Source: Gemmatimonadota bacterium (GTDB taxonomy: Bacteria > Gemmatimonadota > Gemmatimonadetes > Gemmatimonadales > Gemmatimonadaceae). From it: a stretch of 34,673 nucleotides of DNA. A model generated the notes under the pieces. That model made no database searches and was not told the origin of the DNA. It was given only the letters and a program-made list of their open reading frames with translations. A program made the translations under genes and the position numbers. The first letter of the stretch is position 1. Each line of letters begins with the position of its first letter. Below, piece after piece: positions 3,724-32,647 of this stretch. Where the stretch lies: assembly GCA_031372565.1 (NCBI GenBank), contig JANMLN010000120.1, forward strand, positions 1 to 34,673, given 5' to 3'.

Positions 3724-5346
3724 ATGAGCTTTGGTGCCGTTGGTGCGTTGCGTCCCACGACGGTCCTCCCGGTGTTCGATGCCGAGGGGATCGCGGCCGT
3801 GGTGCGTCAGGTGCGAGAGCCGGTGCACGTGGTGTATGACCCACGGCTGGCCACGCCGGCGCTTGGTCTCTGTATCGGCGGCGAGGTGCTCCCCCAGCGC
3901 GAGCAGGGCCCCACGGATTACGCCTTGCTGGCCACCCTGCCCGCCACGTACCCGGAGTGGCTCGGCGATCGCAGCTTCAACGAGGCGCACGGCGTGCGCT
4001 TCCCCTACGTGGCCGGTGAAATGGCCAACGGCATCGCGACCACCGACATGGTGATCGGGATGGCCCGTGCGGGGATGCTCGGCTTCTTCGGCGCCGGTGG
4101 CCTCGGCTACGAGCGCGTGGAAGCCGGCATTGCCACGATCAGCGAGGCACTCGGAGACGACCAACGGTGGGGGGTGAACCTGATTCATTCGCCCGCCGAG
4201 CCGGAACTGGAGGACCGCGTTGCGGACCTGCTCATCCGGCGTGGCGTCCCGCGCATCTCCGCATCCGCGTTCATGGCGCTGACCCCCTCGGTGGTGCGCT
4301 GCTCGGCGGCGGGTCTGACGGTGGATGCGGCCGGGCAGATCGTGCGCCGGCATCATGTGTTCGCCAAGATCTCCCGCGCCGAAGTGGCGGCCCAGTTCAT
4401 GGAGCCTGCGCCGGTCGAGATGCTGCAGCAGCTGGTGGCAGCGGGGAAGATCACCGCCGCGGAGGCGGAGCTGGCGCGCCGTGTGCCGGTGGCCGAGGAC
4501 ATCACGGTCGAAGGGGACAGCGGCGGACACACCGACAACCAGACGCTGGTCGCACTGGTGCCGCGGATCCTCGCGCTCCGCGACGAGCTCTGTGCGAAGC
4601 ACGGGTACACGCGTGAGATCCGGGTTGGCGCGGCGGGCGGACTGGGCACTCCCAGCGCGGTGGCGGCAGCGTTCGCCCTCGGTGCTGCGTATGTCGTGAC
4701 CGGCTCGGTGAACCAGAGTGCGGTCGAGGCCGGGCTCTCCGACGCGGCCAAGGGAATGCTGGCGCAGGCCGGCATTGCCGACGTTGCCATGGCGGCGGCT
4801 GCCGACATGTTCGAACTTGGCGTCAAGCTGCAGGTGCTCAAGCGCGGCACCATGTTCGCGGCGCGCGCCAACAACCTGTACGAGGTGTATCGGAGTTACG
4901 ACAGTCTCGAGGCGATGCCGGCCGACGTCCGCACCAAGGTGGAAACCAAGGTCATGGGCGCGACGCTGGACACGGTGTGGCGCGAGACCGAAGCGTTCTG
5001 GACCATGCGCGACGCCGGACAGGTCGAGCGGGCCAAGAGCGACCCGAAGCATCGGATGGCGCTCGTGTTCCGGTGGTATCTCGGCAAGTCCAGCCGCTGG
5101 GCGATCGAAGGCGATCCGGCGCGCCGCGCTGACTATCAGATCTGGTGCGGACCCGCGATGGGCGCGTTCAATGCCTGGGTCGCCGGGACCTTCCTCGCCG
5201 AGCCTGGCGAGCGCACTGTTGTCCAGATCGCACTCAACCTGCTCGAGGGAGCCGTCGTGGTCGCTCGCAGTCAGCAGCTCCGTGCCTTTGGTGTTCCCGT
5301 TCCTGCAACGGCGCTGAGCTTCCGTCCACGTCGTCTCAGTCTCTGA
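3724..5346 (+). CDS. pfaD: PfaD/Pfa1-type FMN-dependent enoyl-ACP reductase of a PUFA synthase
   Basis: YVAGEMANGIA, WGVNLIHSP, EGDSGGHTD, GAAGGLGTP, AADMFELGVKLQVLKRGTMF, DPKHRMALVFRWY, DYQIWCGPAMGAFN. ATG at 3724 chosen. Confidence 0.95.
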   Translation: MSFGAVGALRPTTVLPVFDAEGIAAVVRQVREPVHVVYDPRLATPALGLCIGGEVLPQREQGPTDYALLATLPATYPEWLGDRSFNEAHGVRFPYVAGEMANGIATTDMVIGMARAGMLGFFGAGGLGYERVEAGIATISEALGDDQRWGVNLIHSPAEPELEDRVADLLIRRGVPRISASAFMALTPSVVRCSAAGLTVDAAGQIVRRHHVFAKISRAEVAAQFMEPAPVEMLQQLVAAGKITAAEAELARRVPVAEDITVEGDSGGHTDNQTLVALVPRILALRDELCAKHGYTREIRVGAAGGLGTPSAVAAAFALGAAYVVTGSVNQSAVEAGLSDAAKGMLAQAGIADVAMAAAADMFELGVKLQVLKRGTMFAARANNLYEVYRSYDSLEAMPADVRTKVETKVMGATLDTVWRETEAFWTMRDAGQVERAKSDPKHRMALVFRWYLGKSSRWAIEGDPARRADYQIWCGPAMGAFNAWVAGTFLAEPGERTVVQIALNLLEGAVVVARSQQLRAFGVPVPATALSFRPRRLSL

Positions 5347-5381
5347 ATTCGCCCCTGTTTCTCGAGCATCATCACGCCCGC

Positions 5382-18000: not shown

Positions 18001-18985
18001 CGTGTCGGGGCCGATCGGTGGGATGCAGGTGGGCAGCGTGGCCGAGATCGAGTACGACGTGCCGCCGACGGAGTGGTACTTCGCGAACAACAACGCGCCG
18101 GCCATGCCGTTCCCGGTGCTGCTCGAGACGGCGTTGCAACCCTGCGGGTGGCTCGCGTCCTATGTCGGCGGCGCGCTCGGATCGGACGAGAACCTCTTCT
18201 TCCGCAACCTCGATGGCACCGGTACGCAGCACATCGAGATCGGCCCGGATATCGGGACCGTCCGTGTGTCGACCACGCTCACGTCGGTGTCGAAGGCCGA
18301 GTCGATCGTGATCATGAGCTTCGACGTGGTCATGCGCGCGGGCGATCGCACCGTGTACACGCTGAAGACCGTGTTCGGGTTCTTCCCCGGCGACACGATG
18401 AAGGACCAGGCCGGACTGCCGATGACACCGGCGCACCGCGCGCGTCTGGTTGATCCGAGTGATGTGCGCGTGGAGCTCGGGACGTCGCCGGCGCAGTACT
18501 TCGACGCCAGCCTGCGCCTGCCCACCGATCGGTTGGTGATGATCGATCGCATCACGGGTCGCTGGACCGGGGGGGAGCTGGCGGGCAAGGCGGGGCTCGG
18601 TCGACTGCGGGCGGAGAAGGACGTCTCAGCGTCGCAGTGGTTCTTCAAGGCGCATTTCTATCAGGACCCCGTACAGCCGGGATCGCTGGGCATCGAGGCG
18701 TTGTTGCAGGCCGTGCAGGCGCTGGCCATCGATCTCGACCTCGGCGCAGGGCTGACGGCGCCGCGCTTCGAGACGCAGGCGGTGGATGTGCCGATGAGCT
18801 GGAAGTATCGCGGCCAGGTCATCCCGGACAATCACGTGGTCGTGGTGGATGTGGAGATCACCGAGCTGCGTCGCGAGGCGCAGGGCGTGCTGGTCGTGGC
18901 CGCGGGCTCACTCTGGGTGGACGGCAAGCGCATCTACGAAGCCACGGGACTTGGCGTGCGGATCGTGTCCGGCACGCCAGCCTGA
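12086..18985 (+). CDS. pfaBC: Fused PfaBC/Pfa3-type subunit: KS-CLF-AT-(pseudo-DH/FabA-like DH) x2
   Basis: ATGA overlap with the pfaA stop. KS DAACASS / ECHATGT / VGHL; CLF lacking the active Cys (TVSSEELSG); AT-like region (YTGAAGAYPHMG, GYCSGE, FVEHGP); FabA-like WFFDGHFKNDPCMPG and WFFKAHFYQDPVQPG, each preceded by a pseudo-DH. Confidence 0.93.
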   Translation: MRSAVPSFAPIAIVGQGCVLPGALSPDALWELVLAGRSAIAPAADDLWRIDAGADRAQLHREIASTMGGHVDGFDRVFDANGFAVPAHALQGLDPVFLWTLHAAREALRSAGMSPLERRPRAALVLGNLSYPTPGLVDFALEQWAEDRTRTAHEDPRNRFMSGFPAHLAAEALGFGGRAFAIDAACASSLYAIKLACDALHDGTADLAIAGGVNHADDLFLHGGFSALNALSPTGQSRPFHRDADGLVPAQGAALLVLERLDDAVANGRQILGVIRGVGLSNDGRSRGLMVPAEEGQVRALRAAYEESGLSPRDISLVECHATGTVVGDGAEVRSMREVFADARALPVGSLKSNVGHLITASGAAAVIKVLAAMRHKVRPPTRTADAPIDELADGMFRLLVSAEPWDAPVDGAPRRAAISNFGFGGNNAHLVLEEWTGAAAAVAPRVPSSARAGAIAIVAQSVRTGATGGRFTDAVFGAAVADGAVASSNAEVTIALDAAGLRFPPNDLKATLPQQTLLLSMALEMGAALERLPRERTSVLIGMQCDAEVARHAIRWCGARPWVAALPPSLANDSLTAASVVGCMPNIVANRLSHQFDFRGPSYTVSSEELSGVAALELGARALRAGEIDAAVIGAVDLCAEPVAEAAARAVLGAGRAEAGDAAALMVLKREADAIRDGDTILALLDADGADQSVVPTFRFALTATSAGLTPRVGHAHAASGLLHVAAAIEACAHRAEPSAVGPMPWLPRDGARVVEVEVEALGQQARTLAVRAASTATPSSALFLTSQPRLAVFVADTVAAMVDVLTRRDEYMGRTGTDAVVAGVRVSIVAESDVELDMRVERAIALLRAPGGDAVVGTIDDGIHVGRGALDGELSFVYTGAAGAYPHMGRDLALAFPELVDRFAARANSVRDAAGWVYSDDPALQTTPMDKLWGASYLSQLHTELTRHLLGLRPTAAIGYCSGETNSLFALDAWGDLDGFRDDVANSHVYDRWLCGELRCLRPAWQLADDAPTDWSTWRIRAPVADVRAAVASEERAHLVIINAPADVVVAGDPQACERIGAMFGRRAARTPGYDFVMHCPEAHEYESRWRALHTRPTVDVPGLRFYTHATRSSYHASTQAAADALTGQAMHMVDFPAMVERAYADGIRVFVEHGPHAGCTKWIGEVLGDRPHVAIALDRYGDSSLLLAVDAAARLFAAGVPVELDALRTTLRPARRSADAALPRSPGSRSLPLSLPAHPIAVPRMPNVLQVPVPTAAASKVGQNGANGRAVNGAVNGASHGASNGSSHGSGEFMAPAPRLASSRFSVPTAAPVTAAPASAAPVTTRVVAPEAYAVEPAPAPVLTPTTAPKSHVAASPSAESATPFAAAANSLASHHAQLAELHTAFLRQQFEAQARFTNIMLAPLAQWATGQVGADAQRGSYEVIAAPAVAVAPVAPVAPVAAIAHAAPVAAPVPSPVMRAPVAAASAPVTAARTPASPPAPAPASAAAIKAPLVRRVPPPRTPTGPTFDRAALEIHAGGEISKIFGPLFAQQDVHARQVRMPEPPLLLADRVLGIEGEAGTMGTGTIWTETDVRADAFYLHEGRMPAGVMVESGQADLMLISWLGADFHNKGERVYRLLGCELTSHGPLPTIGDTLHYEILVDGHAEQQGVRLFFFHYNCWVNGELRMSVRSGQAGFFTDEELANSAGVLWSPESVTPTPDARVAAPIALSTRRAFSADQVTALIEGRLADCYGPGFERADAHTRTPTIAGGRMRLLDEVTHFDPTGGPWGRGYLRATLGLTPDRWFFDGHFKNDPCMPGTLMLEGGLQAMQIFMTGLGFTLDHDGSRFEPVPEQNYSLRCRGQATPASREVVYEIFVDEVVGGDTPTLYADIMGSVDGRKAFHCKRMGLRLVPAWPLDAGRTAVTIAPDPRPVAVVDGFRFDYASLLACAWGVPSSAFGPMYQRFDGTRRVARLPGPPYHFMSRVSRVSGPIGGMQVGSVAEIEYDVPPTEWYFANNNAPAMPFPVLLETALQPCGWLASYVGGALGSDENLFFRNLDGTGTQHIEIGPDIGTVRVSTTLTSVSKAESIVIMSFDVVMRAGDRTVYTLKTVFGFFPGDTMKDQAGLPMTPAHRARLVDPSDVRVELGTSPAQYFDASLRLPTDRLVMIDRITGRWTGGELAGKAGLGRLRAEKDVSASQWFFKAHFYQDPVQPGSLGIEALLQAVQALAIDLDLGAGLTAPRFETQAVDVPMSWKYRGQVIPDNHVVVVDVEITELRREAQGVLVVAAGSLWVDGKRIYEATGLGVRIVSGTPA

Positions 18986-19013
18986 CCGCGCGAACGCTCG
19001 GCGCCATCTGAGC

Positions 19014-19742
19014 ATGACCGCATCGCGTCTCGTGCTCAGTGCAGGCCTAGTCCCGGCAGGGGTGGCGCTGTACGGACTGCAGTTGCCGGTCGCGCCTGAT
19101 GCGGCCTTGGCGGCACTCGATGATCTGCGCGGGGACGCGGCGCTCACCGAACTGCCTTCGCGTGTGGCGGGGGCCGCGCCCAGTCGGCGGGCGGGCTATC
19201 TGGCTGGGCGCTGGTGCGCGCATCAGGCGCTGCTGGTCAGCGCACCTCACGTCGCGCACATGAGCATCGGGACCGGCGAGTTCCGTGAGCCGCTCTGGCC
19301 GACTGGCATTGTTGGCAGCATCTCCCACACGGCCGGTTACGCGCTGGCCGCTGCTGCGCCTCTGGGGGCGGTGCGTGCGATCGGGCTGGATGTGGAACGG
19401 TGGCTCGACGAGGACGCACCCGCGCGTATCGGTGCCGATCTCGCGGGTGAGGGAGAGCTCGAGGCACTCGTGGCTCGGACAGCTTGGCCTGCGGAGCGCG
19501 TGCTGACCGTACTCTTCTCCGCCAAAGAGACCATCTACAAGTGTCTGTTTCCCGACGTGCGAGCGTACTTCGGCTTCGAGACGGCGTGGGTCGAGAGCGT
19601 GGAACCGCGTGACGAGGCTGCAGGGCGGTTCGTGGCGCGGCTGACGGGCCCGCTGGGGCCGGCGTTGCCAGCGGGGCTCATGCTGCACGGGCGCTTTGCG
19701 TGCCGGGATGACGTGGTGGTGACGGCGCTCGTGCGTGGGTGA
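19014..19742 (+). CDS. 4'-phosphopantetheinyl transferase (EntD/Sfp-like; functional PfaE equivalent)
   Basis: RRAGYLAGRWCA, REPLWPTGIVGSISHT, IGLDVE, FSAKETIYK. ATG 28 nt after the pfaBC stop. Confidence 0.9.
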   Translation: MTASRLVLSAGLVPAGVALYGLQLPVAPDAALAALDDLRGDAALTELPSRVAGAAPSRRAGYLAGRWCAHQALLVSAPHVAHMSIGTGEFREPLWPTGIVGSISHTAGYALAAAAPLGAVRAIGLDVERWLDEDAPARIGADLAGEGELEALVARTAWPAERVLTVLFSAKETIYKCLFPDVRAYFGFETAWVESVEPRDEAAGRFVARLTGPLGPALPAGLMLHGRFACRDDVVVTALVRG

Positions 19743-19847: not shown

Positions 19848-22800
19848 CTACCGATGCTGCGCGAGACAACGGGCGTACTCCTTCGCCGCCTCCCCCGGAT
19901 CTTCCTTGAGTCGCTCCACGCGCACCGTGGGCGGCACGCACACCCGCGTGTATCCCATGATGCGCTCGATGAGCGCGCGCGGCTCGATCGTCCAGATGCG
20001 CACCGTCCCGTCCTGCGACGTGGAGAAGACGTGTTCGTTGTCCTCGCTGAACGCGACCGAGTTGACGGCGCCACGGTGACCGTCGAGTCGGAGCACTCCC
20101 GACCGCCCTGAGCGCGCCCAGACGTTCACCGTCCCCGTGGTGTCGCCCCCCGCGAGCAGCGATCCGGCACTGGCGAAGGACAGGCTGAGGATGCGACCAC
20201 GGGCACCATGCAGCAACTGGAACGGCATGATCGACGCGCGGTGCTCGGACGGGCGCGCGTAGAGGCCGATCTGGTTGTCGCTGAAATTGACCGCGATCGT
20301 GTCGCCGTGCGCGTCGAAGGTCATGGCGGTCCCGGTTGCACCAACGAGCTCATCCACCAGACTCGTCCCGTCCTTCGTGGACCAGAGGAAGGCCGTGCCG
20401 TCGAGAAAGGACGTGGCGCGGGTCGCGAGCGCCCAGCGGCCGTCGTCGCTGACCCGTGCGCGCAAGTCGTCCAGCGGATGCCCCTCGTCCTGTGAGAGCA
20501 CGCGCGGGACGGTCGTGGACGCTCCAACACGCCACGCGCCGCCGAGCCGCTCGTCGTCGAGGTACGTGACCATGGTCCCACTGGAGTCGAGCCATCGAGG
20601 CTTTCCGCCCAGCGTGATGTTCGCGATCGGCGCTGGCGGACCTCCCGCTGGCCACTCCCACACCGTCGTCGTGTTCTTGTCGACGGTCACCACGCGCATC
20701 GACGATCCCATGAACCGGAAGTCGCGCGCCCAGTGGGACGCCGAGTCGAACGTGGTGCGCAGCCGATCCGGATGTGCCTCGAAATCATGCGAAGCTTCGC
20801 GATCAGTCAGCGGCAAGACGGCAAGCCGCCCACCGCGCGAAATCGTCGCGATCGCGCTGTCCCCCGGACCCACGCGTAGCCGACCAAGTGAGCCAAGGCC
20901 GAGCGGCACCGTGAGCGGTTCCGGATCGTGGAACGTGCCCCAGATGCGCCCCGTCCCGTCGTCCGAGACGGTCACCAACGCATCGCCCCTGCCACTGACA
21001 TTCGCCCACGTGACGGCGCCCGCGTGCCCGGTGAACGGCAGGTAGGGGCACGGCACGTTGTGGTCGCTGCACTCATCGGCGATCGACCAGAGGTGTGCCG
21101 TGCCGTCGAGCGCGCCGGAGATCAGGGAGTCTCCGCCGAGGGTGAACTGCACGTTGGCGACAGCGCCACGATGTTGCCGATACCAGCGGATGCGCGACGC
21201 CCTCGCCACGTCGAGCACGGCCACGCCAGTCTCCGTTGCCACGGCCACGCGCGTGCTCTGATCGTTGAGCCGCACGCGCTTGATCTCGCTTCCGAGCTCC
21301 TGGTCAACCAGCACCTTCTGGCTGCCGACGCTCCAGACCATCACGCGTCCCGTGATGCTGCCCGCGACCGCGAGTTCACCGTCGGCGCTGAAGCGGATGT
21401 CGCGCCAGCCGCTCAAGTCGCTCATGGGAAGCCTGACGACAGGGTCTGCGGCATCCGGCGTCCACAGGAGGGCCGGCTCCGACCAGCAGGCGAAGATCAC
21501 GCGACGTCCGTCGCGACTCATGTCGGTGCCCGTCACCGAGCACGGCACCGAGGGCGGGAGCATCTGCCGTGTGGCCGATCCCGGAGCCGTCCCGAACCGG
21601 CAGATCGAAATCGTATCGGCGGACGCCCGACACCCACCAAGCACGAACCGGCCGTCCTGACTGATGCGCGGTTGTTCGACGGATGCGCCCACGGAATCTC
21701 CAATGGGGCGCGGTGCGCTCCTTCCGGAGAGATCGACCAGATGCAGCATGCCGACCGAGTCCGACACCACCGCATGTCGTGCCGACGGGTCGGCCGCCAA
21801 CCTGCTTCCTCCACGCGCGCCAGTGGCGACCACGCGCACCCCTGCGCCCGCAGAGTCCCAGACGCGCAGCGAACCGTCGCGCTTGAGCATGACCATGCGG
21901 GTCCCGGCAGCATCGCGCGCCACCTGCGCATCGGTGACGGAATCCTCGATGAAGATGGCCACCTGGGCATCGGCGATGCGACGCAGTGCTTCGATGTCCG
22001 GCCATTCGAAGGTGGCCTCGGTCGTCGCGCCGAGCTCGGCAACAAGTGCCGCGGCGATGGACGGATCGGTCACGGAGAAGTCGCGGATCGCCGCGCGCAA
22101 GTTCGCCGCCTTGGCCTCGTCGAGCGAGTCGCTGGTGACCGCGAGCAGGACCGCGGTGAAAAAGAGCGCCACGAGCCCGCCGGCCGCCGCTCCGATCATC
22201 CAGCGGCGTCGCGTGCGCCGCGTACGCTCCTGCCGGGCGCGCTCGTCCAGTTCACGTTGTTGCCGTTCGAGTCGTTCGTCCTCGACTGCCTGCTTGCTCT
22301 CTTCGAGGAACTGCTGCACCACGTCGAAGTCGTCCGACGCACGCGCATAGCGCTCCGCCCAGCCGCGCGTTGCGCCCAACGCCTCCCACTTGTCGCGCTG
22401 CGTGGTGTACTCGAGCCCGACCATGAGACCTCGCTCTCCGGCCATGGCCGAGCGCGCCGTCTGCACGAGCCACAGATAGGTGTTGCGCGCGCGGCGTTCC
22501 GTGTCCACCCACTCGGCGAGCCGCGGCCATTGCCGGATCAGACTCTCGTGCGAGATGTCGACGCGCGGGTTCGCCGGATCCCCGTCGCGTGACAGGTACA
22601 GGAAGTTGCGATCGTGCGCGCGAAAGGCGGCGATGACACGCTCCACCTCGGCACGATCCGCCCCGGTGGCCGCTGCCAGCGCGTTGATGCGACAGGGACG
22701 CCGTACGCTGCGCTGGCTGATGTCCGTATCCGTGAGCGCGCGGAAGATCTGCTCTGCGAGCGTGGCGTCCACGGTCGCGAGTGCATCGTTGGCGTCCTTC

Positions 22801-23717
22801 GCGAGTGCCCCTTCGAGTCCATCCGCGAGCAGGTAGTGCTCGATGTCGATCGGACCGGTCGCGCCGTTCGCGGCCCAGTGGTCGTACGTACGCTGGAGGG
22901 CGTGCTGCAGCACGGGCAGACGATCCGCACGATCTCCCAGCGCGTTGGCCAACCGGTCGACCAGGCGTGCCGTGAGTTTCGCGCCGGTCATCATCGCAGG
23001 ACCTTCGTTGGCCTGCCGGAGTTGATCGCGTGAGAGCCGCGGCACGAGGTAGCGCGCCTTGTTCATGGCTTCCGGCAGGCCGTGAAAGAGGTCGCAATCG
23101 CCGAGGAAGTCGCTGCGCATGGTGAGCGCCACGAATACGGGGGCGGTGCTCTCCGAGAGGCCGAGCAGCAGGTCGACGTAATCCGCGGCCTCGGCGCGCC
23201 GACGCGCCAGGTGCGCCCGGACCTCCACGGGCATCCGGTCGTCGTCACTCTCGGTTCCGCGGAACGCGAACAGCTCCTCGAACTGGTCCACGAGGATGAA
23301 CACGCTCGCCTTGGGATCGCGATGCTGTTCGATGAAATCGACCGCGCCTCCAGCAAGCGCCAGACGGATGGAGGCCTCGAGACCGTCCTCGCCCTCGACG
23401 GCCTCGGGGTGCCCGAACGCCCTGGCGAGTTCCGTCGCGAAGTTGTTCATCGGTGCGTCGCCCGGCTTGCAGATCACGGTGACCCACTGGTCTGCGCCCG
23501 CCACCAGGAACCCCGCGGCAAGCCGCGGGATGAGGCCGGCACGCACGAGCGACGACTTGCCGCTGCCAGATCCGCCAACCACCGGGAGGAAACGCGTCGT
23601 GTGCAGGATCTCCTGCAGTTCTGTGATCTGCTCGTCGCGACCGAAGAAGAGGTGCGAGTCGGTATCGAAGAACGGCCGGAGCCCGACGTACGGGTTGGGC
23701 GTCGTGGCGCGCGTCAC
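19848..23717 (-). CDS. nSTAND1-type NTPase + TM helix + WD40 beta-propeller sensor (about 1289 aa)
   Basis: GTG start overlaps the upstream TGA (GTGA) with SD GGAGGA. NPYVGLRPF..FFGR, Walker A GGSGSGKSS, Walker B ILVDQFEELF, MRSDF, LPVLQHAL, DISHESLIRQWPRL; coiled coil, then TM WMIGAAAGGLVALFFTAVLLAV; WD40 repeats such as GHRGAVNSVAFS...SQDGTVRIW. Confidence 0.9.
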   Translation of the reverse strand: MTRATTPNPYVGLRPFFDTDSHLFFGRDEQITELQEILHTTRFLPVVGGSGSGKSSLVRAGLIPRLAAGFLVAGADQWVTVICKPGDAPMNNFATELARAFGHPEAVEGEDGLEASIRLALAGGAVDFIEQHRDPKASVFILVDQFEELFAFRGTESDDDRMPVEVRAHLARRRAEAADYVDLLLGLSESTAPVFVALTMRSDFLGDCDLFHGLPEAMNKARYLVPRLSRDQLRQANEGPAMMTGAKLTARLVDRLANALGDRADRLPVLQHALQRTYDHWAANGATGPIDIEHYLLADGLEGALAKDANDALATVDATLAEQIFRALTDTDISQRSVRRPCRINALAAATGADRAEVERVIAAFRAHDRNFLYLSRDGDPANPRVDISHESLIRQWPRLAEWVDTERRARNTYLWLVQTARSAMAGERGLMVGLEYTTQRDKWEALGATRGWAERYARASDDFDVVQQFLEESKQAVEDERLERQQRELDERARQERTRRTRRRWMIGAAAGGLVALFFTAVLLAVTSDSLDEAKAANLRAAIRDFSVTDPSIAAALVAELGATTEATFEWPDIEALRRIADAQVAIFIEDSVTDAQVARDAAGTRMVMLKRDGSLRVWDSAGAGVRVVATGARGGSRLAADPSARHAVVSDSVGMLHLVDLSGRSAPRPIGDSVGASVEQPRISQDGRFVLGGCRASADTISICRFGTAPGSATRQMLPPSVPCSVTGTDMSRDGRRVIFACWSEPALLWTPDAADPVVRLPMSDLSGWRDIRFSADGELAVAGSITGRVMVWSVGSQKVLVDQELGSEIKRVRLNDQSTRVAVATETGVAVLDVARASRIRWYRQHRGAVANVQFTLGGDSLISGALDGTAHLWSIADECSDHNVPCPYLPFTGHAGAVTWANVSGRGDALVTVSDDGTGRIWGTFHDPEPLTVPLGLGSLGRLRVGPGDSAIATISRGGRLAVLPLTDREASHDFEAHPDRLRTTFDSASHWARDFRFMGSSMRVVTVDKNTTTVWEWPAGGPPAPIANITLGGKPRWLDSSGTMVTYLDDERLGGAWRVGASTTVPRVLSQDEGHPLDDLRARVSDDGRWALATRATSFLDGTAFLWSTKDGTSLVDELVGATGTAMTFDAHGDTIAVNFSDNQIGLYARPSEHRASIMPFQLLHGARGRILSLSFASAGSLLAGGDTTGTVNVWARSGRSGVLRLDGHRGAVNSVAFSEDNEHVFSTSQDGTVRIWTIEPRALIERIMGYTRVCVPPTVRVERLKEDPGEAAKEYARCLAQHR

Positions 23718-25930
23718 GTGTTCCTCCCCGCGAGCAGCGCGTCGACGGCCGCGGGATCGAACCCGGCGGCGCCGCTGGCAACGGGCGACATGTTCGCGAA
23801 CTGCAACTGTTCCGGCGTGCGTGCACTGGCCACATACAGCCCGAGCCGCGTGGGCAGATTCTCGTTCATCTTGAGCTTCATCGCCATCCAGTAACGCGAC
23901 TTGATCCACTGGTCGTTCACGGCGCCAAAAAAGAAGATCACGTTCGCGCTGTCGGTGATCCACTTGCGGAACTGTTGCTCGGCGGCCTGCGGGCCGTCGG
24001 CGCTCGTCGCCTGCGCAGCCTCATCCATCGGGTCGGTGTAGATGACGGGCGTCCCCTTGGACTTGAGGTACCGGATGAGCGGGATCGCCTGCTTGAGGTC
24101 GTCGACGTGGACATCCACGAACACCGAATGCGCCGCGTGGACTGCCGTTGCCGCCGCGTCGGCCGCGCGGGTCCGCTCGGCCAGCATGCGATCGCGGTGG
24201 ACAACAATGCGATCCGCCATCCTGGCGAAGCGCACGCGATCGAACGCGAGCTCGTGCCGCTCGCGGTCGGTGTTGTCGAGCTCGGCGACGAAGCGGCCGT
24301 ACGCCGTGGTGGCGGGAATCGTCGCCGCGTCGTTCACCAGGACCAGCTGCGGCTTCTGGAGCTGTGCGCCGAGTTGGAGCTGTCGCACGGGGAAGGTGCC
24401 GGGCGCGCCAGGACCATCGGCAGTTGCGCCGTCGAGCACGTCGCCCGCGTCCTCGTTCAAGATGTGCACGAACAGGTCGGCGTTCGCCGCGATCTCGCGC
24501 ACGCGCCGTTCGTGGCCCGTTTCGGTGAACTCGTCGGGCGCGTCCTGGTTCGGCACGGCCGGCAGGACCTCGATCCCCTTGGAGGCCAGGACGCGGATGA
24601 GCTGCGGTCGCATGCTGAGCTGGAAGCTCGGCGTGATGGCCGTCGCGGCGAGGAAGACGCGGAACGGCGGCTCGCCCGAGGCGGATTGCGCCACCATCGT
24701 GGCCGATGGCGTCGGGCGCCCGGCGTCCGCAGGCGGCGGTGTCGCCGCAGCCATGGTTGCCAGCTCCGGTTGCGCCGGCGACGCGAGGGTCACCAGCTCC
24801 GGTTGCGCCGGCGTCACCGACTCGATGCTGAACAGCACGCCGTGCTTCGGTCGCAGATAGAGTACCGGTGTCGCCCACTCGCTCGTTTCGCCATCGTAGA
24901 GCATGCGACGCGCGTCGGCCACGGCTTCGTCCACCGGCACGCCGGTGGCGAGCCGCTTGTAGAAGAGCGCGGCGAACTTGATCGCCGCGATGTCCGAGAT
25001 CGGATACTGCATGGCCAGCACCGCAGGAATGCCGCCGGCAAGCAGCGATGCGGCCACGCCACCGAACGGATTGATCGCGCCGCGCGCGCTCGTCTCCGCC
25101 GTCTTGCACGCGTTGAGGAAGACGAGCTGCGGCAGCGGCTTCGAATTGGCGATCATCTTGCGCACCTGATCGCCCTCCATGCGGTGCGCCGACTCATCCG
25201 CATTCTCCATGAGCAGCGCCCCGCGCCCCGTGTCCGGGTCGAAGTCGCCGTGCCCCATGAAGTGCACGATGTGGTACCCCGGGCGCGCGTTGGCGAGCGC
25301 GTCAGCGATCGCCTCCTCGGTGGCGGTCTCGAGCACGTCGATCTTCCAGCCGATCTTCACGAGTCCGAACGCATCCTCGATGCGTCCCTGCTCCTTCTTG
25401 AGGTTGAGCGGAGCGGTGCCCGTCGGGTTGCTGACGATGAGCAGGATCTTGAGCGTGGACTGGAACGAGATGGGCGGCGTTTCCTTCGCGACGTCGATCG
25501 TGCGCACCAGCACGGTGCGGTCGCCGAACGCGAGCGGGGGATCGCTCGGCGTGCGATTGGGCGTGAGGATCTCCCACGGCAGCGCGGCCAGGACCGCGGC
25601 CTCGTCGTCGGCCGTGATGTTGAGGCGAACGCGCACCCCCTTCTCGGCGCCGCCCATCAGCTCCATCAACAGGTCGCGGATGTTGCCGGAGAACAGATTC
25701 TGGAAGAGCTTGACGCCGAGGGCGCGCACATCGGGCTTCGGCGCGCTCACGGCGGGGGTTTCGGGTTCGGGTTCGCGCATCACGCCGATGCCGCGTGCCA
25801 GGCCCGTGAGGTTCATCAACTCGTCCGGCAGCGTGAGCGTCCCCGTCACGGAAGCCGCGTCGTCCGTTTCTGCGATGACCGTGAACGTCGGCTTCTTGCC
25901 GACGATGCGAATGGTCAGGTTCTTGTCCAT
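23714..25930 (-). CDS. CHAT (caspase HetF-associated) protease with two C-terminal TIR/DUF4062-like alpha/beta domains (738 aa)
   Basis: LAALPWEIL, catalytic HIVHFMGHG and LVFLNACKT, GIPAVLAMQYPISD..A..FAALFY, EWATPVLY. C-terminal FRVFLAAT...ADLFVHIL and SVFVDVH...ANVIFFFG; the TIR-like assignment is tentative. ATG at 25930. Confidence 0.85.
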   Translation of the reverse strand: MDKNLTIRIVGKKPTFTVIAETDDAASVTGTLTLPDELMNLTGLARGIGVMREPEPETPAVSAPKPDVRALGVKLFQNLFSGNIRDLLMELMGGAEKGVRVRLNITADDEAAVLAALPWEILTPNRTPSDPPLAFGDRTVLVRTIDVAKETPPISFQSTLKILLIVSNPTGTAPLNLKKEQGRIEDAFGLVKIGWKIDVLETATEEAIADALANARPGYHIVHFMGHGDFDPDTGRGALLMENADESAHRMEGDQVRKMIANSKPLPQLVFLNACKTAETSARGAINPFGGVAASLLAGGIPAVLAMQYPISDIAAIKFAALFYKRLATGVPVDEAVADARRMLYDGETSEWATPVLYLRPKHGVLFSIESVTPAQPELVTLASPAQPELATMAAATPPPADAGRPTPSATMVAQSASGEPPFRVFLAATAITPSFQLSMRPQLIRVLASKGIEVLPAVPNQDAPDEFTETGHERRVREIAANADLFVHILNEDAGDVLDGATADGPGAPGTFPVRQLQLGAQLQKPQLVLVNDAATIPATTAYGRFVAELDNTDRERHELAFDRVRFARMADRIVVHRDRMLAERTRAADAAATAVHAAHSVFVDVHVDDLKQAIPLIRYLKSKGTPVIYTDPMDEAAQATSADGPQAAEQQFRKWITDSANVIFFFGAVNDQWIKSRYWMAMKLKMNENLPTRLGLYVASARTPEQLQFANMSPVASGAAGFDPAAVDALLAGRNT
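24760..24813. repeat. 33-bp-period tandem duplication in the CHAT protein linker (PAQPEL x2)
   Basis: CCAGCTCCGGTTGCGCCGGCG at 24760-24780 and 24793-24813. Confidence 0.8.
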
Positions 25931-25958: not shown

Positions 25959-28900
25959 CTACGCGGTGAGCCACTGCAGGAGGTGCGCGTGCACGTCGGG
26001 ATTGGCCAGATACGCGACGTGTGAGATGCCCTGCGGCCCCGTGAGCGCAAGCGAGTCGGCAATGGGGAACATCGCCGCGCCGTTGCTGCCGGCGGTGCCG
26101 GCCGAGGGTACCACGAGGTCATGTCCGTCGCCAAAGAGCGAATTCAGTGACTTGTCGAGCACGAGGTTCAACAAGGCACCCGGGCTCGCGGTATAGTGGG
26201 AACTGACCGCGAAGTAGCGCGTGTCGGCTCCGGTCGTGCGCGGCCCCGCATTGAGTCCCGTGAGAAAGGTGCTGCCGTTCTGCATGGCCATGAGGCCATC
26301 GAGGCCCTTGGCGGCGCCCACGCCAACCGTCTTGACGGTGGTGATGATGCCGTCGAGCACCTCGGTGGTCGGCATCCCGGGCACGCAGCAGATCGCGGTC
26401 GAAAGCACATCCACCATGGTGCCCGCGCGGGTTGGATCAAACAGCGCACTCCCCGCATTGGGCGTGCCGAGCATGGCCACGCGGCGCACCATCACCGAGC
26501 GCGCACCCATGCCCAGTTCGGACTGTCGCTCCGCCAGTGCGCGTGCCACGAGGCCGCCGCGCGAGACGGCGAGCACGTCGAGCTCGAGCGCGATGTCGGC
26601 CGGGAGCCGTTTGACGAACTCGCGCGCGTTCTCGAGCGGATCCTGCGAGAGCGTGGTGTGGTCGAAGGCAAGGACGCGGCCGCCGTAGGCCGCGTCGAGA
26701 CTCGCCATCACGGTCGCTGGCAGCACGCCAAATGTGCCGGCGGCTCGGCCGAACGGCTGGTGGAGCAGGAGCAGTGCGCGTCCCTGCCGCATGCGCGCCC
26801 AGTCGTCGGTGGTCATCTCGGCGTCGCGGATGGCGTCCGGACTCGCCGCCCGCACGGGCCGAAGCGCATAGGGGCGGTACCGCGATTCCCACTGGAACGA
26901 GAGGTAGGTGCCCGCAGCGCTCAAGATCGGGTTCACGAACGGTGCAAGCAACACGGAGGCCGCCTTGAGCACGGCGCCCGTGACGCTCACGCCGCGCGTG
27001 CCGGCCTCGGTGGCCGGGCCCGTCGTGTTGGCGGCGCCGACGGGGAGCACGAAGCGCTGCATCGTGGGAGGCGCTCCGCTGGCGTCGCGTGTTGCGGCCT
27101 CTGCGGTCGGCAGGTGCCATCGCACGCCGCCGAGCGAATCGGTGGTGACGACGATCTGCATCATGTCGCGCGGTGGCGCCGGAAGGTCGATCGACACGCT
27201 GGCCGAGCCCTGCGTGTCGCGTGTGGCGCTCGTGGCCTGCAGCTGATCCAGCGTGATCGTCTTGGCGACGGTGATGCCCTGATCCGTGAGCGCGCGGAAG
27301 AGCGGCGCGTTCGCGCCACTCGTGGCTGAGGCGCCGTCGGTGATCGTGGCGACCCCGGTCGCGCCCTCCGTGCTGACGGTGGCACCGGAGAGAATCGCCG
27401 GCGCGCCGCTCAGCGCGGCCGAACGCTTGCGTCGGATCGTGAACGACCGATCCACCGTGGTCCAGTCGCCGAGTGCGGCGATCGGCGTCTCACTCTCGGG
27501 TTCTCGCGTGGCCGGCGCCTTGATGGCGGTTTCGAACAGCAGCTGCAACGCCGACATGCCCGCGATGGCGCGCACGCCTGCGGTCTTGAGGAAGTCGAAC
27601 GACGTCTCGGCTGTCGTGGCGTAGAGGCGGATCGTTTCCGTTCCCTCGGACTGCACGACCCCCGGTCCCTCCAACTTGAACGGAAATGCATCCGGGAGCT
27701 TGAAGCGCTGCCGTTCGCCGGGCTTGGTCAGGACGTCCACCGTCTTGCCTGCAGCGAGACGCTCCTGGGCGCCCTCCTCGGACGGCCAGAGCCGCGAAAT
27801 CGAACCGCCGACGCCGAAGTCGAGCAGGTTGACCCACAGGTCCGCGGTGTGGTTGTTCGTCAGCCGCACGCCCACGAACTCGCCGCGATCCTCGATGACA
27901 ATCGCACCGCCGTCCTCTGGGCGCGGCGTCGCCACTTCCCACGACGTGTCCGATGTCGAGCGCAGCAGCTCCATCGTCACCTTGCCTGCCAGCGCCGATG
28001 TCCGATCCGGATTGCGCAGCTCCATCGCGAGCCGATAGCGTGCGCGACTCGCAAGATTGTCGGCCACGGCGCGCCACTCGGACTCGCGCTTTGGCGGGAG
28101 CGCCACCTGCCCGCTGCTGCCTGTCACGATCCACGTCGGGTCGGCGAGCGCGCCGAGTTCGGCGCCGACGTCGCTCGGAGCAGCCAAGGCGCGCGCCGGA
28201 GCGAGCTGCACGCGCAGCGTCCACGCTTCGTCGTCCTGCACCACGCGCACCAGCGGCGACTCGTCCAGTGCGGTGCGGAGCTTCGAGGCGGTCTCGCTCG
28301 CGCTCGGCACCAGCTGGACCGCGAGTCGCTGGTCGCCGGCCGCGTAGCGCGTGAGCACCGCGCGCGCGCTCGCGGCGATCGCGTTGGGTGTTACCTCGCT
28401 GACGACCTTCGCCTGGCTGGTGAATGCGCTGACGCTCGTGACCTCCAGTTCGCCGATCGGCGTGGCCCCTTCGGTCGTGCTCGTGCCGGCCGCATACACG
28501 GCGTATCGCGAGCCGACCGTGGTGCCGAGCGCGGCGCCGGCGGCCAGCGTGGCCTCGACTGCCCCCTCGTCGCGCACCGACACCACGACGTACGCCATCG
28601 GGCGCACGTCCTCGGTGCCGAACAGCTTCCGATCAATCGTCCCCTCGATCTGCGGATGCTGCTTGCCCTCGCGAAACGCCACGACCTGCGCCGCGGCCCG
28701 TTCGAACAGGTCCCGGTAGGTGACCGGACCGCTCGCCTCGGCGAGCGCCTGGGTGAGGTAGTAGGTGAGCGCACCGTGATGGGCCGGCGTGGCCGTGGGA
28801 ATGATCAACTCGCCCGAGAGTTCGTCGTGTCGGCAGCCCGCGATGAGCACATAGCGGCTGCCCAGCGGCAGCCAGCCGCTCGGCCCGATGACCGCGGCAG

Positions 28901-29459
28901 GGCCGCGCGCGGCGGCGGGCGTTGGGGACTTGGGCAACTGCTCCACGGGGCGCGGATCGTCCGGCACACCGCGCGTGCCCACCAGCGTCGGGTCGACGTC
29001 GCGCGTGATGTTGCCCGAGTGGCACGCGTCCACGATGAGCGTGATGTGTTCGGTCTTGGTGCCGAGCGCCACGAGCCAGGCGTGGATCTCGTCGTCGGTG
29101 ATGTCGATGCTACCCTCGCCGCTGCCGTCGTGCGCGGTCCCGTCCACCGGCACCAGCGTGCAATCCCAGCCGCTCGGCTTGTCGCCCTCGCGGTCACGGA
29201 TGCGCGAGCCGTGACCGGCGTAGTAGAACGCCACGATGTCGCCGGGCTGGGTGGACGCCTCGAAGGTGGCGAGCGCTCCGAGGATGCCGTCGCGCGTGGC
29301 GGCTTCGTCGAGCAGCGTGGTGAAGACGGTAAAGTCGAACTTGGATCGGAGCAGGTCCTGCATCACCTGCACGTCGTTCGTGCAGCCCTCGAGTTCCTTG
29401 ACGCGCTGGTACTTGTTGATGCCGATCAGAAGCGCACGCTTGGTGGGTATGGCGGACAT
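25959..29459 (-). CDS. Caspase-like peptidase C14 + DUF4384-like domain + C-terminal alpha/beta-hydrolase fusion (1166 aa)
   Basis: KRALLIGINKY, LEGCTNDV, catalytic FYYAGHGS and IVDACHSG, HGALTYYL, QHPQIEG; middle VRLTNN..DLWVNLLDFG..GSISRLWP..GTETIRLYAT; hydrolase FDHTTLS.DPLENA, AVSRGGLVAR, LGTPNAGS, DLVVP, SHVAYL. ATG at 29459. Confidence 0.88.
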   Translation of the reverse strand: MSAIPTKRALLIGINKYQRVKELEGCTNDVQVMQDLLRSKFDFTVFTTLLDEAATRDGILGALATFEASTQPGDIVAFYYAGHGSRIRDREGDKPSGWDCTLVPVDGTAHDGSGEGSIDITDDEIHAWLVALGTKTEHITLIVDACHSGNITRDVDPTLVGTRGVPDDPRPVEQLPKSPTPAAARGPAAVIGPSGWLPLGSRYVLIAGCRHDELSGELIIPTATPAHHGALTYYLTQALAEASGPVTYRDLFERAAAQVVAFREGKQHPQIEGTIDRKLFGTEDVRPMAYVVVSVRDEGAVEATLAAGAALGTTVGSRYAVYAAGTSTTEGATPIGELEVTSVSAFTSQAKVVSEVTPNAIAASARAVLTRYAAGDQRLAVQLVPSASETASKLRTALDESPLVRVVQDDEAWTLRVQLAPARALAAPSDVGAELGALADPTWIVTGSSGQVALPPKRESEWRAVADNLASRARYRLAMELRNPDRTSALAGKVTMELLRSTSDTSWEVATPRPEDGGAIVIEDRGEFVGVRLTNNHTADLWVNLLDFGVGGSISRLWPSEEGAQERLAAGKTVDVLTKPGERQRFKLPDAFPFKLEGPGVVQSEGTETIRLYATTAETSFDFLKTAGVRAIAGMSALQLLFETAIKAPATREPESETPIAALGDWTTVDRSFTIRRKRSAALSGAPAILSGATVSTEGATGVATITDGASATSGANAPLFRALTDQGITVAKTITLDQLQATSATRDTQGSASVSIDLPAPPRDMMQIVVTTDSLGGVRWHLPTAEAATRDASGAPPTMQRFVLPVGAANTTGPATEAGTRGVSVTGAVLKAASVLLAPFVNPILSAAGTYLSFQWESRYRPYALRPVRAASPDAIRDAEMTTDDWARMRQGRALLLLHQPFGRAAGTFGVLPATVMASLDAAYGGRVLAFDHTTLSQDPLENAREFVKRLPADIALELDVLAVSRGGLVARALAERQSELGMGARSVMVRRVAMLGTPNAGSALFDPTRAGTMVDVLSTAICCVPGMPTTEVLDGIITTVKTVGVGAAKGLDGLMAMQNGSTFLTGLNAGPRTTGADTRYFAVSSHYTASPGALLNLVLDKSLNSLFGDGHDLVVPSAGTAGSNGAAMFPIADSLALTGPQGISHVAYLANPDVHAHLLQWLTA

Positions 29460-29565: not shown

Positions 29566-29721
29566 TCAGCCGCGACCGCCGCCCCCCGACGAGGGCTTCG
29601 CGCCGGGATCACGGTCGCCACCCTTGACGGGCTTCGGTGCCGGGTCGCGGTCACCGCCGCGCGTGGGCTTGGGCGCCGGGTCGCGGTCGCCGGCCTTGAC
29701 GGGCTTGGGGGTCGGGTTCAT
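29566..29721 (-). CDS. 51-aa repeat peptide MNPTPKPVKAGDRDPAPKPTRGGDRDPAPKPVKGGDRDPGAKPSSGGGGRG
   Basis: ATG 4 nt after the kinase stop, with GGAG 7 nt upstream. Three 12-aa (36-bp) repeats in which GDRDP is invariant while its codons differ synonymously (ggc/ggt, cgc/cgt, gac/gat, ccg/ccc). Confidence 0.75.
   Translation of the reverse strand: MNPTPKPVKAGDRDPAPKPTRGGDRDPAPKPVKGGDRDPGAKPSSGGGGRG
29593..29706. repeat. 36-bp tandem repeat, about 3.2 copies, encoding the GDRDP peptide
   Basis: GGGCTT recurs at 29593, 29629, 29665 and 29701 with similar sequence between. Confidence 0.9.
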
Positions 29722-29725
29722 GGGA

Positions 29726-32647
29726 TCACTCCGAAAGAAGGGTGGGGTCACGCACGATGGCGCCGCCGCGAAGCGCGACAGCGCGGGGAGAAGCCAGTGC
29801 GGCAAGCCGGCGCCGGAATGCTGCGGCGCCGCGCGTGTCACCGATAGCATCCGCAATCTCGGCGCGCAGCGCAAGAGACGGACGCAGATAGAACAGGAAC
29901 GACACGGGCGTCGGTCCGTCCAGCCCGTTGGCCACCACCTGTGCGGCGGCCGCTTCGCGATGTCGCAGCAGCAATCGTGCATACAGCAGTCGCTCCGCCG
30001 CCAAGGCGCCGCCCGGATCCCACGCCAACTGTGGGCTCGGAGGGAGCGGCGTGCTCAGGAGCGCCGCCAGTTGCGCTCGCGCCTTGGCCGTGTCGCCCTG
30101 AGCAAGCGTGGCGTGCGCCGCGGTGGCCTGCGCAAAGAGCGCCGTGGCCCTGCTCGTGTCCGTCGCAGCGCGCTTGGCCAGCGCCGCGGCGATCGCGATG
30201 GTGGCGTCGGGGCGCCCGTGCGTCGCGCCGTACAGCGCGAGGATCCAGCAGCGCTCCGCGGTGGAGCAGCGGGCGTAGTCGTCGCCAAAGCGGCGCTGGT
30301 CGCTCACGGCAACATCACGTGCGACCGAGTCGAGCGCCGGTGTCACCGTGGCACCCAGCAACAGGAGTGATGCACCGCCGTCGCCCCGAGTCATGGACCG
30401 GGCGATGTACTTCGGGATGTCGCCTGAGCGATCCTGCGCCATCAGCACGGCGACGAGACCCATCAGGGCGCTCTCGCGTTCAGGGCCCGCCCCCGCACGC
30501 CCCGCGACGGTATCGAGTTCGGTCACGGCCTCGAACGCCGCAGCCGCACAGGCGAGGTTCGCGCCGCGCCCGCCGAGCACCATCGCCGCCGAGAGGGTCG
30601 CGAACGGATCCGTACGCTCCGCCTTGGCCCAGTTCATGCGCGCGGCACCGTCCCGCACGCAGGCGGTGGCGAAGGTGAGGTGCGAGGCGAGGACCGAGTC
30701 CGGCACCGCCGCGAGCATGCGATCGACGAGTGGCGCGGCGCCCACGGCGTCGCCGCGGCGCAGGCGAATCTCGATCGGGTGCAGCAGCCCGTGGACCGCC
30801 GATGGATCGAGCGCACGGGCGCGCGCGAACGCGACATCGGCCACGCTGTCCGCGTCTCCCGCCGACGTCACGAGATGGATGTGCGTTTCGCCGAGCTGCA
30901 TCCATGCCGCCGCGAACTCCGGATCGAGCGCGACCGCGCGTTGCAACTCGGCACTTGCGGAGTCGGCCGACCCGTTCAGATACGCGGCATAGCCGCGCGC
31001 GTAGTGCGCATACTGCGCCGGCATCGGCTTGCCAATCGCGGCGCGTACCAGCGTCTGGGCTTCGGAGGGGCGGTGATCCCAGCTGGCGGCCTGCGCGCCG
31101 CGCAGCGCCGCGAGTGCGAAGAGCGAGTCTGACCGGACCGCCTCGCGATACAGCTCGAGCGCGCGCGCTGGCTGCGCACGGCGGAACGCCGCTTCGGCCG
31201 CGAGGAAGCTGGCGACCGCCGAGGGATCTCGATCGCGCCAGGCGGCTGCCAGGTCCTTCGATTCGCCCCCCGGTACGAGGCGCGGCAGCAGCTCGTTGAC
31301 CGCGCGCAGGCCCGCACGCCAGAGGTCGTTCGGTACACCGCTCGCGCGCGGGCGCAGCACGACGCTGTCGCTCCCGACATCGACCAGTTCGAGGAGCACG
31401 TCGGCGGAATCGCCGCGCAGGACGACCCGCCCGGTGACGTAATAGCCGGCCCGCTGCTCGATCGCGATCCGGCGCGCGAGGGCAGGGTCGAGTCGCGCAC
31501 CGCCGGCGCGCTGCAGCTCGGGTGGCATCAGCCGCCAGCCATCGATCCAGCGCAGCGCGCCGCGCTTGTCGAGCGCGCTGCCGATCATGGTCGCCACGTC
31601 CTCGCCAGCGCCCGTGCTGCCGCCCACGGAACCGGGTGCTTCGAGGGGGAATCCGACGATGCGATTGCGATCGAGACCCGAGGCGCTGGCCGTGCCTTGC
31701 CGCAGCACGAGTGCGATGACGCCGAGTGTGACCACGGCAAGGCCGCCCGCGACGAGTCGTCGCGCCGTGCGCGTCGGCGGCACCACGGGCACGGACGAGG
31801 AGATCGTGCCGGGGGTGCGCTCCGCCTCCCGCAGCGCATCCCGCAGCGCGCCCGCCGTGGGGAAGCGATCGGCCGGTGTCTTTGCCAGCGCACGTTCGAT
31901 GACCGCCGCGAGCGCCGGCCCGACCGACGGGCGCACGGTACGGATGCTCGGTACAGGGTCGACCGCGTGGCGCGCACGAATCGCCTGCGTCGTGGGTCCG
32001 GTGAACGGTGGGCCGCCGACGAGCATTTCGTAGAGCACGCACGCGAGCGAGTAGATGTCGCTCCGTCCGTCGAGGCGGTCGGCCGACGCCTGTTCGGGGC
32101 TCATGTACGACGCCGTGCCCACGGTCACGCCCGTGGCGGTCAGCGATTCGTCGTTCTCGGCGTCCGTGGCGCGCGCCACGCCGAAGTCGGCGAGCACGGC
32201 GCGACCATGATCCAGGAGGATGTTGCTCGGCTTGACGTCACGGTGCACGAAGCCGGCCGCGTGTGCATGGTCGAGGGCATCCGCCACTTCGCAGGCGAAC
32301 TGCACGGCCTGCGGCACGCTCAACTGTCGTTCGCGCACGAGCAGGTGCTGCAGCGTGTCGCCTGCCACGACCGGCATCGTGAAGTACGGCACGCCGTGGA
32401 ACTCGCCCGTGTCGAGCACGGGAAGGATGCCGGGGTGCGTAAGCCCGGAGACAATGCGGATTTCGCGCGTGAAGCGAGCGAGCCCGACCCGGGCGGCGAG
32501 CTCCGGCTGGAGGAGCTTCAGGGCAACGTCCTGACCCGTGGTACTGTCGCGTGCGAGGTACACCGTGGCCATGCCACCGCGACCGAGCTCGCGCTCAAGG
32601 CGATACCGGCCCCCCACGAGCTCATCCATTGGCAGGACGACGTCCAT
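29726..32647 (-). CDS. Hanks-type Ser/Thr protein kinase + TM + TPR-like helical repeats (about 973 aa)
   Basis: LGRGGMATVY, VALK, HRDVKPSN, DFG, GTASYMSPEQ, SDIYSL; TM LVAGGLAVVTLGVIALVL; TPR-like segments (ELQRAVALDPEFAAAWMQLG). ATG at 32647 (or 32629). Confidence 0.92.
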   Translation of the reverse strand: MDVVLPMDELVGGRYRLERELGRGGMATVYLARDSTTGQDVALKLLQPELAARVGLARFTREIRIVSGLTHPGILPVLDTGEFHGVPYFTMPVVAGDTLQHLLVRERQLSVPQAVQFACEVADALDHAHAAGFVHRDVKPSNILLDHGRAVLADFGVARATDAENDESLTATGVTVGTASYMSPEQASADRLDGRSDIYSLACVLYEMLVGGPPFTGPTTQAIRARHAVDPVPSIRTVRPSVGPALAAVIERALAKTPADRFPTAGALRDALREAERTPGTISSSVPVVPPTRTARRLVAGGLAVVTLGVIALVLRQGTASASGLDRNRIVGFPLEAPGSVGGSTGAGEDVATMIGSALDKRGALRWIDGWRLMPPELQRAGGARLDPALARRIAIEQRAGYYVTGRVVLRGDSADVLLELVDVGSDSVVLRPRASGVPNDLWRAGLRAVNELLPRLVPGGESKDLAAAWRDRDPSAVASFLAAEAAFRRAQPARALELYREAVRSDSLFALAALRGAQAASWDHRPSEAQTLVRAAIGKPMPAQYAHYARGYAAYLNGSADSASAELQRAVALDPEFAAAWMQLGETHIHLVTSAGDADSVADVAFARARALDPSAVHGLLHPIEIRLRRGDAVGAAPLVDRMLAAVPDSVLASHLTFATACVRDGAARMNWAKAERTDPFATLSAAMVLGGRGANLACAAAAFEAVTELDTVAGRAGAGPERESALMGLVAVLMAQDRSGDIPKYIARSMTRGDGGASLLLLGATVTPALDSVARDVAVSDQRRFGDDYARCSTAERCWILALYGATHGRPDATIAIAAALAKRAATDTSRATALFAQATAAHATLAQGDTAKARAQLAALLSTPLPPSPQLAWDPGGALAAERLLYARLLLRHREAAAAQVVANGLDGPTPVSFLFYLRPSLALRAEIADAIGDTRGAAAFRRRLAALASPRAVALRGGAIVRDPTLLSE

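Follow-up and report, generated by a model that had tools for sequence, protein, structure and literature searches.

To our knowledge, only a small number of bacterial Ser/Thr receptor kinases have been matched to a cognate ligand. The plant precursor PROPEP1 is reportedly leaderless and cut after arginine, and RiPP precursors with repeated cores, for example those of graspetides, carry a leader peptide and are accompanied by an adjacent modifying enzyme. The wound circuit of PROPEP1, AtMC4 and PEPR1-2 joins a precursor and a metacaspase to a single-pass Ser/Thr receptor kinase (PMC12629630). In RRNPP systems, as delineated in PMC10075063, a small peptide gene (10-100 aa) that varies between loci lies directly beside the gene for an intracellular TPR receptor of 250-500 aa, and the LCP/RopB pair sets a precedent for a leaderless signal (PMC10518010). 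In the Haliangium SAVED-CHAT/PCaspase/PCi/PCk cascade, genes for CHAT, a caspase-like protease, a Ser/Thr kinase and a small protein are clustered together (10.1101/2023.06.23.546230). In a caspase plus alpha/beta-hydrolase death module, the hydrolase is cleaved at conserved R↓G positions by its partner, a related bacterial caspase (10.1101/2025.11.14.688446; the arrow marks a cut or predicted cut), and nSTAND1 proteins belong to described conflict systems (PMC8195603). Danger signals between bacteria are characterized as poorly defined (PMC9992862).

Here, we describe a 51-aa repeat peptide whose gene belongs to a family of small, Pro/Gly-rich genes found beside a single family of membrane receptor kinases in Gemmatimonadota. 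The following features were assigned in the window, that is, the whole stretch of 34,673 nt that was analyzed:

19848-23717, minus strand: nSTAND1 NTPase with a hydrophobic segment and WD40 propellers (domain matches)
23714-25930, minus strand: CHAT-domain protease, located downstream within the same run of genes (domain matches)
25959-29459, minus strand: metacaspase-type C14 protease with DUF4384 and the alpha/beta-hydrolase-like DUF7379, no signal peptide (domain matches, alignment, structure)
29566-29721, minus strand: repeat-peptide gene, 51 aa (ORF translation, repeat finding, orthologue comparison)
29729-29732, minus strand: ribosome-binding site GGAG, formed by the last kinase codon (orthologue comparison)
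29726-32647, minus strand: Ser/Thr kinase with one transmembrane helix, a small alpha/beta domain and a TPR solenoid (Pfam Pkinase and TPR matches, model); the start at 32647 may be a few codons further in
29783-31687, minus strand: predicted extracytoplasmic sensor domain of the kinase (alignment, model, structural matches)

Elsewhere in the window, a large PKS/PUFA-synthase-like cluster (3709-19742) lies beside the operon, with genes of 2314 and 2299 aa that contain repeated carrier-like units, a phosphopantetheinyl transferase and a gene that we take to be PfaD-like. RecA-like and IMS-family genes stand side by side on the minus strand at 30-2769, a pair that presumably resembles the ImuA/ImuB mutagenesis cassette.

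By analogy, the kinase-peptide-caspase module would work like the plant wound circuit outlined in PMC12629630, with the differences that neither peptide nor receptor is homologous to its plant counterpart, that the sensor consists of an alpha/beta domain and TPRs rather than the LRRs of PEPR, that each precursor holds several units and that the genes form one operon. The gene logic of RRNPP systems is shared, but the module falls outside that group on receptor type and secretion signal: the receptor is a membrane kinase of 973 aa, the peptide has no Sec signal, the phylum is Gram-negative and maturation is predicted to depend on an intracellular caspase (compare the criteria given in PMC10075063). 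Unlike in the Haliangium cascade, no SAVED, CRISPR or sigma factor genes were seen in this cluster, the kinase has a membrane helix and a TPR sensor, and the peptide reads as a low-complexity repeat, apparently unlike PCi, a predicted CI-2-like folded inhibitor (10.1101/2023.06.23.546230); nor does the peptide accompany the caspase everywhere, as would a PCi-type inhibitor. The protease arm belongs to known kinds (10.1101/2023.06.23.546230; PMC8195603): an nSTAND1-WD40 gene is in the cluster, and the hydrolase-like domain is preceded by conserved R↓G linkers as in the death module, although caspase and hydrolase are fused here. The words kinase and CHAT are missing from the main text of 10.1101/2025.11.14.688446, and no kinase-peptide pair appears in the accessible parts of that source or of PMC8195603. 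A literature search, with most subscription journals and preprint supplements outside its reach, found no description of such a pair. A RiPP precursor is not a good match either, given that the repeats start at residue 1-6 and the neighbors are a kinase, a caspase, a CHAT protease and a STAND protein; no ATP-grasp enzyme was found among the ten window proteins scanned.

Translation of 29566-29721 yields the peptide that a sequence-only reading of this DNA had pointed out, with three PKPxxxGDRDP repeats in 51 aa; in the mechanical ORF list, it is hidden at the end of an ATG frame of 138 aa. The peptide can be divided into four units of 12-13 residues ending at Arg13, Arg25, Arg37 and Arg50, the predicted cut sites, followed by Gly51; at the DNA level, the period is 36 nt, with 3.5 copies at 29593-29717 (Tandem Repeats Finder). 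The gene lies between the kinase-TPR gene and the caspase gene, with the CHAT and nSTAND1-WD40 genes beyond. GGAG (29732-29729) directly adjoins the kinase TGA, the peptide ATG follows 4 nt past that stop, and the reading's claim that the gene has its own Shine-Dalgarno (SD) sequence is borne out by the retention of GGAG in three genomes of the genus despite different kinase stops (TGA, TAG, TAA). The proposed coupling to the kinase stop holds within this genus (offsets of 4, 4 and 5 nt) but not elsewhere (14-68 nt). Orthologues of 99 aa and 75 aa occupy the same place in two relatives of the genus; one of the two has 5 repeats and the other 7, and copy number spans 3-7 across the genus.

Selection on the peptide, which had been proposed from synonymous differences between repeat copies, is likewise upheld: 9 silent versus 6 non-silent codon differences separate the three copies of the 51-aa peptide, with 80 versus 37 in the G001 orthologue and 27 versus 8 in the G003 orthologue. 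The units were chosen by the pattern KPxxxxDRD, so that the constancy of those residues is by construction, which does not hold for the codon variation. Because the same silent bias is seen in the antisense mirror frame (330 versus 185), the strand is assigned from the conserved SD, ATG and stop. The 51-aa peptide has no hydrophobic segment (best 15-residue Kyte-Doolittle mean, -1.27) and hence no Sec signal by hydropathy, in agreement with the reading. The peptide, a low-complexity repeat, produced no Pfam, PADLOC or NCBIfam match, and the triple PKP..GDR pattern occurs nowhere else in the six frames of the genome. Between 29300 and 33000, no sigma-70-like promoter was found, and the spacer that separates the peptide and caspase genes has no terminator-like site. 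The ORF is a real, selected small gene, and it is almost certainly translated.

A search of 401 genomes of the phylum with a tandem-GDRDP DNA pattern, as the reading had suggested, recovered this genome (G000) and G003, along with a wrong-frame match in G099, and nothing else. The family is missed by sequence search and was found by position. A profile of the kinase C-terminal part had matches in 39 of 301 genomes of the class; with further loci added, 103 kinase ends were assembled (91 distinct at 95% identity), and the small ORF at each was chosen by position and SD only, after which it was checked for tandem repeats or a Pro-rich window. Two peptides were set by hand (for L194, the ORF at +137 nt was used; L192 was followed as far as residue 80 because of an apparent frameshift). 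Of the 34 family kinases with a caspase directly downstream, 31 are followed by a small ORF that is repetitive or Pro-rich, as are 26 of the 45 with no caspase within 1.6 kb and 7 of the 12 near contig ends; among the controls from this genome, the same signature was found beside none of 49 other kinases and at 17 of 410 long frames that do not encode kinases. The three caspase-linked failures still show peptides by eye: L111 and L136, each a helix with one GDRDP, and L245, with GREGG repeats. The signature failed at 19 of the 45 caspase-free kinases, and at 17 caspase-free kinases without a downstream peptide, none was found upstream either (9 of these had no recognizable kinase start in the locus).

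On the caspase side, the closest 55 of 80 caspase loci were examined. A family kinase lies directly upstream at 27, and an SD-led small ORF separates kinase and caspase at 25 of these, the other two showing repeats on inspection. Among the 28 loci without an upstream kinase, 23, spread over several branches of the caspase tree, have no such peptide; three of the remaining five have a peptide on contigs cut before the kinase position and two have a divergent layout. Because the peptide follows the family kinases with or without a caspase and is missing from these 23 kinase-free caspase loci, it goes with the kinase, not with the protease. The positional homologues that the reading had made a touchstone thus exist in dozens, in addition to the two orthologues, and the peptide is very probably a functional partner of the family kinase.

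The kinase (973 aa) has its membrane helix ahead of the TPRs, and a hydrophobic segment follows the kinase domain in 77 of the 80 family members scored. In the structure model (pLDDT 93.6), the region past the helix folds as a small alpha/beta domain and a TPR solenoid. A Cys pair in the sensor domain is invariant in 78 of 78 sequences, which suggests a disulfide and hence an extracytoplasmic location. The best structural matches of the sensor model are peptide-binding TPR domains such as that of PEX5 (Z 17-19, rmsd 3.7-5 A, about 205-220 residues aligned), a generic TPR likeness that shows no function; Foldseek returned only generic TPR matches and weak matches to the CadC periplasmic domain, and the ESM Atlas, unnamed TPR clusters. 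TIGR04510 ('putative peptide modification system cyclase') is matched weakly, far below the cut-off, by 46 of 78 members; as a side observation, this match (29783-31687) suggests that other enzyme-membrane-TPR receptors beside peptide genes may share this sensor. The G000 genome (4.4 Mb) has 50 frames with a Ser/Thr kinase catalytic-loop motif, and only this one has a partner peptide beside it.

The caspase is predicted from its sequence to be of the Arg/Lys-specific metacaspase type, with acidic S1-type motifs and an intact His83/Cys146 dyad. GCxND is kept in 21 of 22 sequences and DxCH[SA]G (here, DxCHSG) in 20 of 22, and both motifs match S1 residues named in PMC4357240. The closest solved structures are AtMC4 (the top match), Yca1 and TbMCA2; the nearest caspases (88-91% identity) are in Gemmatimonadetes/Gemmatimonadota records. 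Linker arginines of the caspase are conserved, for example Arg153 in 22 of 22 sequences and Arg822, followed by glycine (R↓G), in 13 of 13, and the P2 residue is Gly or Asp in the peptides versus mostly Thr or Ser in the caspase linkers. CHAT is not in every homologous locus, and the nSTAND1-WD40 gene varies between loci; its product is likely the upstream sensor of the protease arm. In some loci, the caspase-hydrolase gene ends early or is split while the peptide is intact (L154:8854-10230; L170, L192), possibly owing to assembly error. The same caspase-hydrolase family also occurs without kinase or peptide beside caspase-nSTAND1 fusions (L157, L163, L167, L172, L193), four of these records being from Acidobacteria, Vicinamibacterales or Rubrivirga and one from Longimicrobium.

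The partner peptides are built in two ways. Most of the caspase-free ones consist of a Trp-rich helix that leads into a single DPxxPPP-like tail, and their helical cores gave 18 pairwise BLAST matches, compared to none in any of 20 shuffles. A hydrophobic N-terminal segment is present in 8 of 30 caspase-free partners, in some cases lipoprotein-like, and these lipoprotein or membrane anchors suggest that the family acts outside the cytoplasm. No hydrophobic or export segment was found in any of the 33 caspase-linked peptides, 27 of which have tandem repeats, compared to 4 of the 30 caspase-free partners. The repeat sequences differ wholly between loci, and differ greatly even between close kinases. 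Forms that look, from their sequences, like intermediates, with Arg appearing before the tail, are L252 (no caspase, GDPPPKPP) and L184 and L259 (caspase, RGDKTPPPPPP). In several loci, partner peptides are fused to long Lys/Ala/Arg-rich, histone-H1-like tracts (L175:7845-8840; past the kinase stop in L241, L235 and L260; ahead of the caspase in L181).

Arginine punctuates the caspase-linked peptides. A small residue-Arg-[DEG] motif before a Pro, defined on the caspase-linked set itself, is present in all 33 scored and in 4 of the 30 peptides without an adjacent caspase (4 of 26 under uniform picking); three of these four fall in the caspase clade, one of them with a caspase-like frame upstream. 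In 32 caspase-linked peptides (L175 excluded), Asp, Glu or Gly follows 163 of 199 arginines and Gly or Asp precedes 149, and the spacing between arginines is 12-13 residues in 110 of 136 cases. Arg or Lys lies within the last three residues of 26 of 32 caspase-linked peptides (L192 excluded) versus 11 of 30 caspase-free ones. The sequence-only reading had singled out TRG in the second repeat as a match to TR motifs in the caspase: TRG and, in the caspase, TR[G/D] are indeed there, but this is not the key motif, since the orthologues have TSGG or other residues, Thr precedes only 3 of the 199 arginines and the conserved arginine is that of DR↓DP, not Arg21 of TRG.

The association of the motif with the caspase has to be read against phylogeny. 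In trees from which rows under 450 aa and, later, L126 were excluded, nearly all caspase-linked kinases form one clade (35 rows, support 93-94), leaving only 4 independent caspase/no-caspase pairs, so that Fisher values overstate the association; a sign test on these pairs was not significant. A second case is provided by two loci with a proline-free, acidic EDDEGGR↓G-type repeat and a divergent caspase:

L199, 2998-3228, minus strand: proline-free Arg/Gly repeat peptide, upstream of the kinase
L197, 2517-2831, minus strand: proline-free Arg/Gly repeat peptide, upstream of the kinase

Their kinases lie outside the caspase clade (AU p 1.4e-5, the clade having been named after seeing the tree), but their caspase groups with the kinase-linked caspases of L151 and L154, so that this case may have been acquired together with the caspase instead of originating a second time. 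L197 and L199 appear to be a partly independent case of Arg punctuation beside a caspase.

The reading that we favor, although we put it slightly below an even chance, is that the 51-mer is a four-unit precursor that would be cut by the metacaspase into 12-13-residue ligands of the extracytoplasmic TPR domain of the kinase. Once activated, the Arg-type metacaspase would cut the 51-mer after each DR↓DP-type arginine, releasing 12-13-mers ending in Arg; the STAND/CHAT/caspase/hydrolase arm would damage the membrane or lyse the cell, and the cut units would thereby reach the outer sensor and act on the TPRs of the kinase, in the same cell or a neighbor, as a warning. The motifs make cleavage of the peptide by the caspase probable, and the processed-precursor idea, which the sequence-only reading had ranked last, comes closest to the best-supported account. 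Binding of the peptide to the TPR domain, as judged from the model, has an even chance; the proposal that cut units reach the sensor after damage or lysis and so warn the same or neighboring cells is tentative. That the caspase which kills an attacked cell also chops the precursor into alarm peptides sensed by the TPR kinase of neighboring kin, a bacterial cytokine with the repeat sequence as a kin-specific code, is more doubtful. The main gap in the precursor-ligand model is topology: peptide and caspase, neither with an export signal, would be inside and the sensor is predicted outside the inner membrane, so that the route is unexplained except by damage. The divergence of repeats between close kinases counts against the model as well, given that a strict ligand would have to track them, and so do the difference in P2 between peptides and caspase linkers and the 19 caspase-free kinases at which the signature failed.

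Alternatively, the intact repeat protein might be the active, multivalent ligand that clusters the kinase, with caspase cleavage destroying it and flipping the kinase state in the manner of a guard or tripwire. We consider this unlikely: multivalency would come from tandem repeats as well as from a single tail carried by a coiled-coil-like helix, the caspase-free repeat peptides L109 and L128 imply that repeats need no cutting, and copy number varies within the genus, but an uncut protein would have no export signal, and the conserved unit length and terminal Arg/Lys better suit defined products. Topology would be no obstacle if the peptide acted in the cytoplasm on the kinase domain or juxtamembrane part, as an inhibitor, scaffold or substrate whose cleavage releases control, because peptide, kinase domain and caspase would then share one compartment. 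Despite the peptide-kinase linkage and the Thr/Ser in this genus's repeats, such a role is improbable, considering the lipoprotein-like or hydrophobic N-termini of several relatives, the 49 other kinases without a partner (the distinguishing mark of the family being its sensor domain) and the 8 of 29 multi-Arg peptides with no Ser/Thr in any internal unit, which also tells against the earlier suggestion of a general kinase substrate. The same low probability is assigned to a multivalent, PCi-like molecule that, as a decoy substrate or an inhibitor, would determine the threshold at which the caspase or CHAT acts. The Arg-[DEG] motifs track the caspase, with many sites per molecule, the L197/L199 peptide drops the Pro motif yet keeps R↓G, and PCi is reported both to inhibit and to be cut by PCaspase (10.1101/2023.06.23.546230). 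The sequence-only reading had put a decoy, inhibitor or activator of the proteases foremost, but as a primary role, this conflicts with the kinase-free caspase loci that have no peptide, with the occurrence of the family without any adjacent caspase and with the many kinase-peptide-caspase loci from which CHAT is missing.

A cis-acting leader, through which proline pausing or mere translation of the ORF would tune expression of the downstream caspase, is very improbable. PPP is present in 23 of 33 caspase-linked peptides, and the caspase start has a pyrimidine-rich region upstream and no obvious SD, but PPP is absent from the 51-aa peptide, in many relatives the opposite strand carries the next long gene, folding of the 121-nt spacer does not exceed that of shuffled sequences (z -0.15) and the conserved Arg spacing would be left unexplained. 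Least probable of all is an untranslated DNA repeat or chance ORF. The exact sequences of all five repeat peptides looked up, this one included, are absent from a collection of 15 billion proteins (one helical partner peptide is present as a 'hypothetical protein'), and the silent bias is common to the antisense mirror frame; against this stand the third-position bias, the conserved SD-ATG-stop and the dozens of positional homologues with in-frame 12-13-codon units.

What is new here is the kinase-first linkage with its controls, the caspase-free helical partners, the caveat of a single caspase clade and the proline-free second case. The repeat peptides represent a class of genes that is missed by gene callers, and the dozens of natural pairs of kinase and peptide in the family, some accompanied by a protease and some not, make cleavage, binding and pair specificity directly testable. 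If the alarm-peptide reading is true, Gemmatimonadota would possess a dedicated peptide-sensing family of eukaryote-like receptor kinases, one lineage of which is wired to programmed death, and the repeat peptide would amount to a bacterial cytokine that is encoded by a gene and matured by a caspase, in convergence with the PROPEP-metacaspase-PEPR design of plants.
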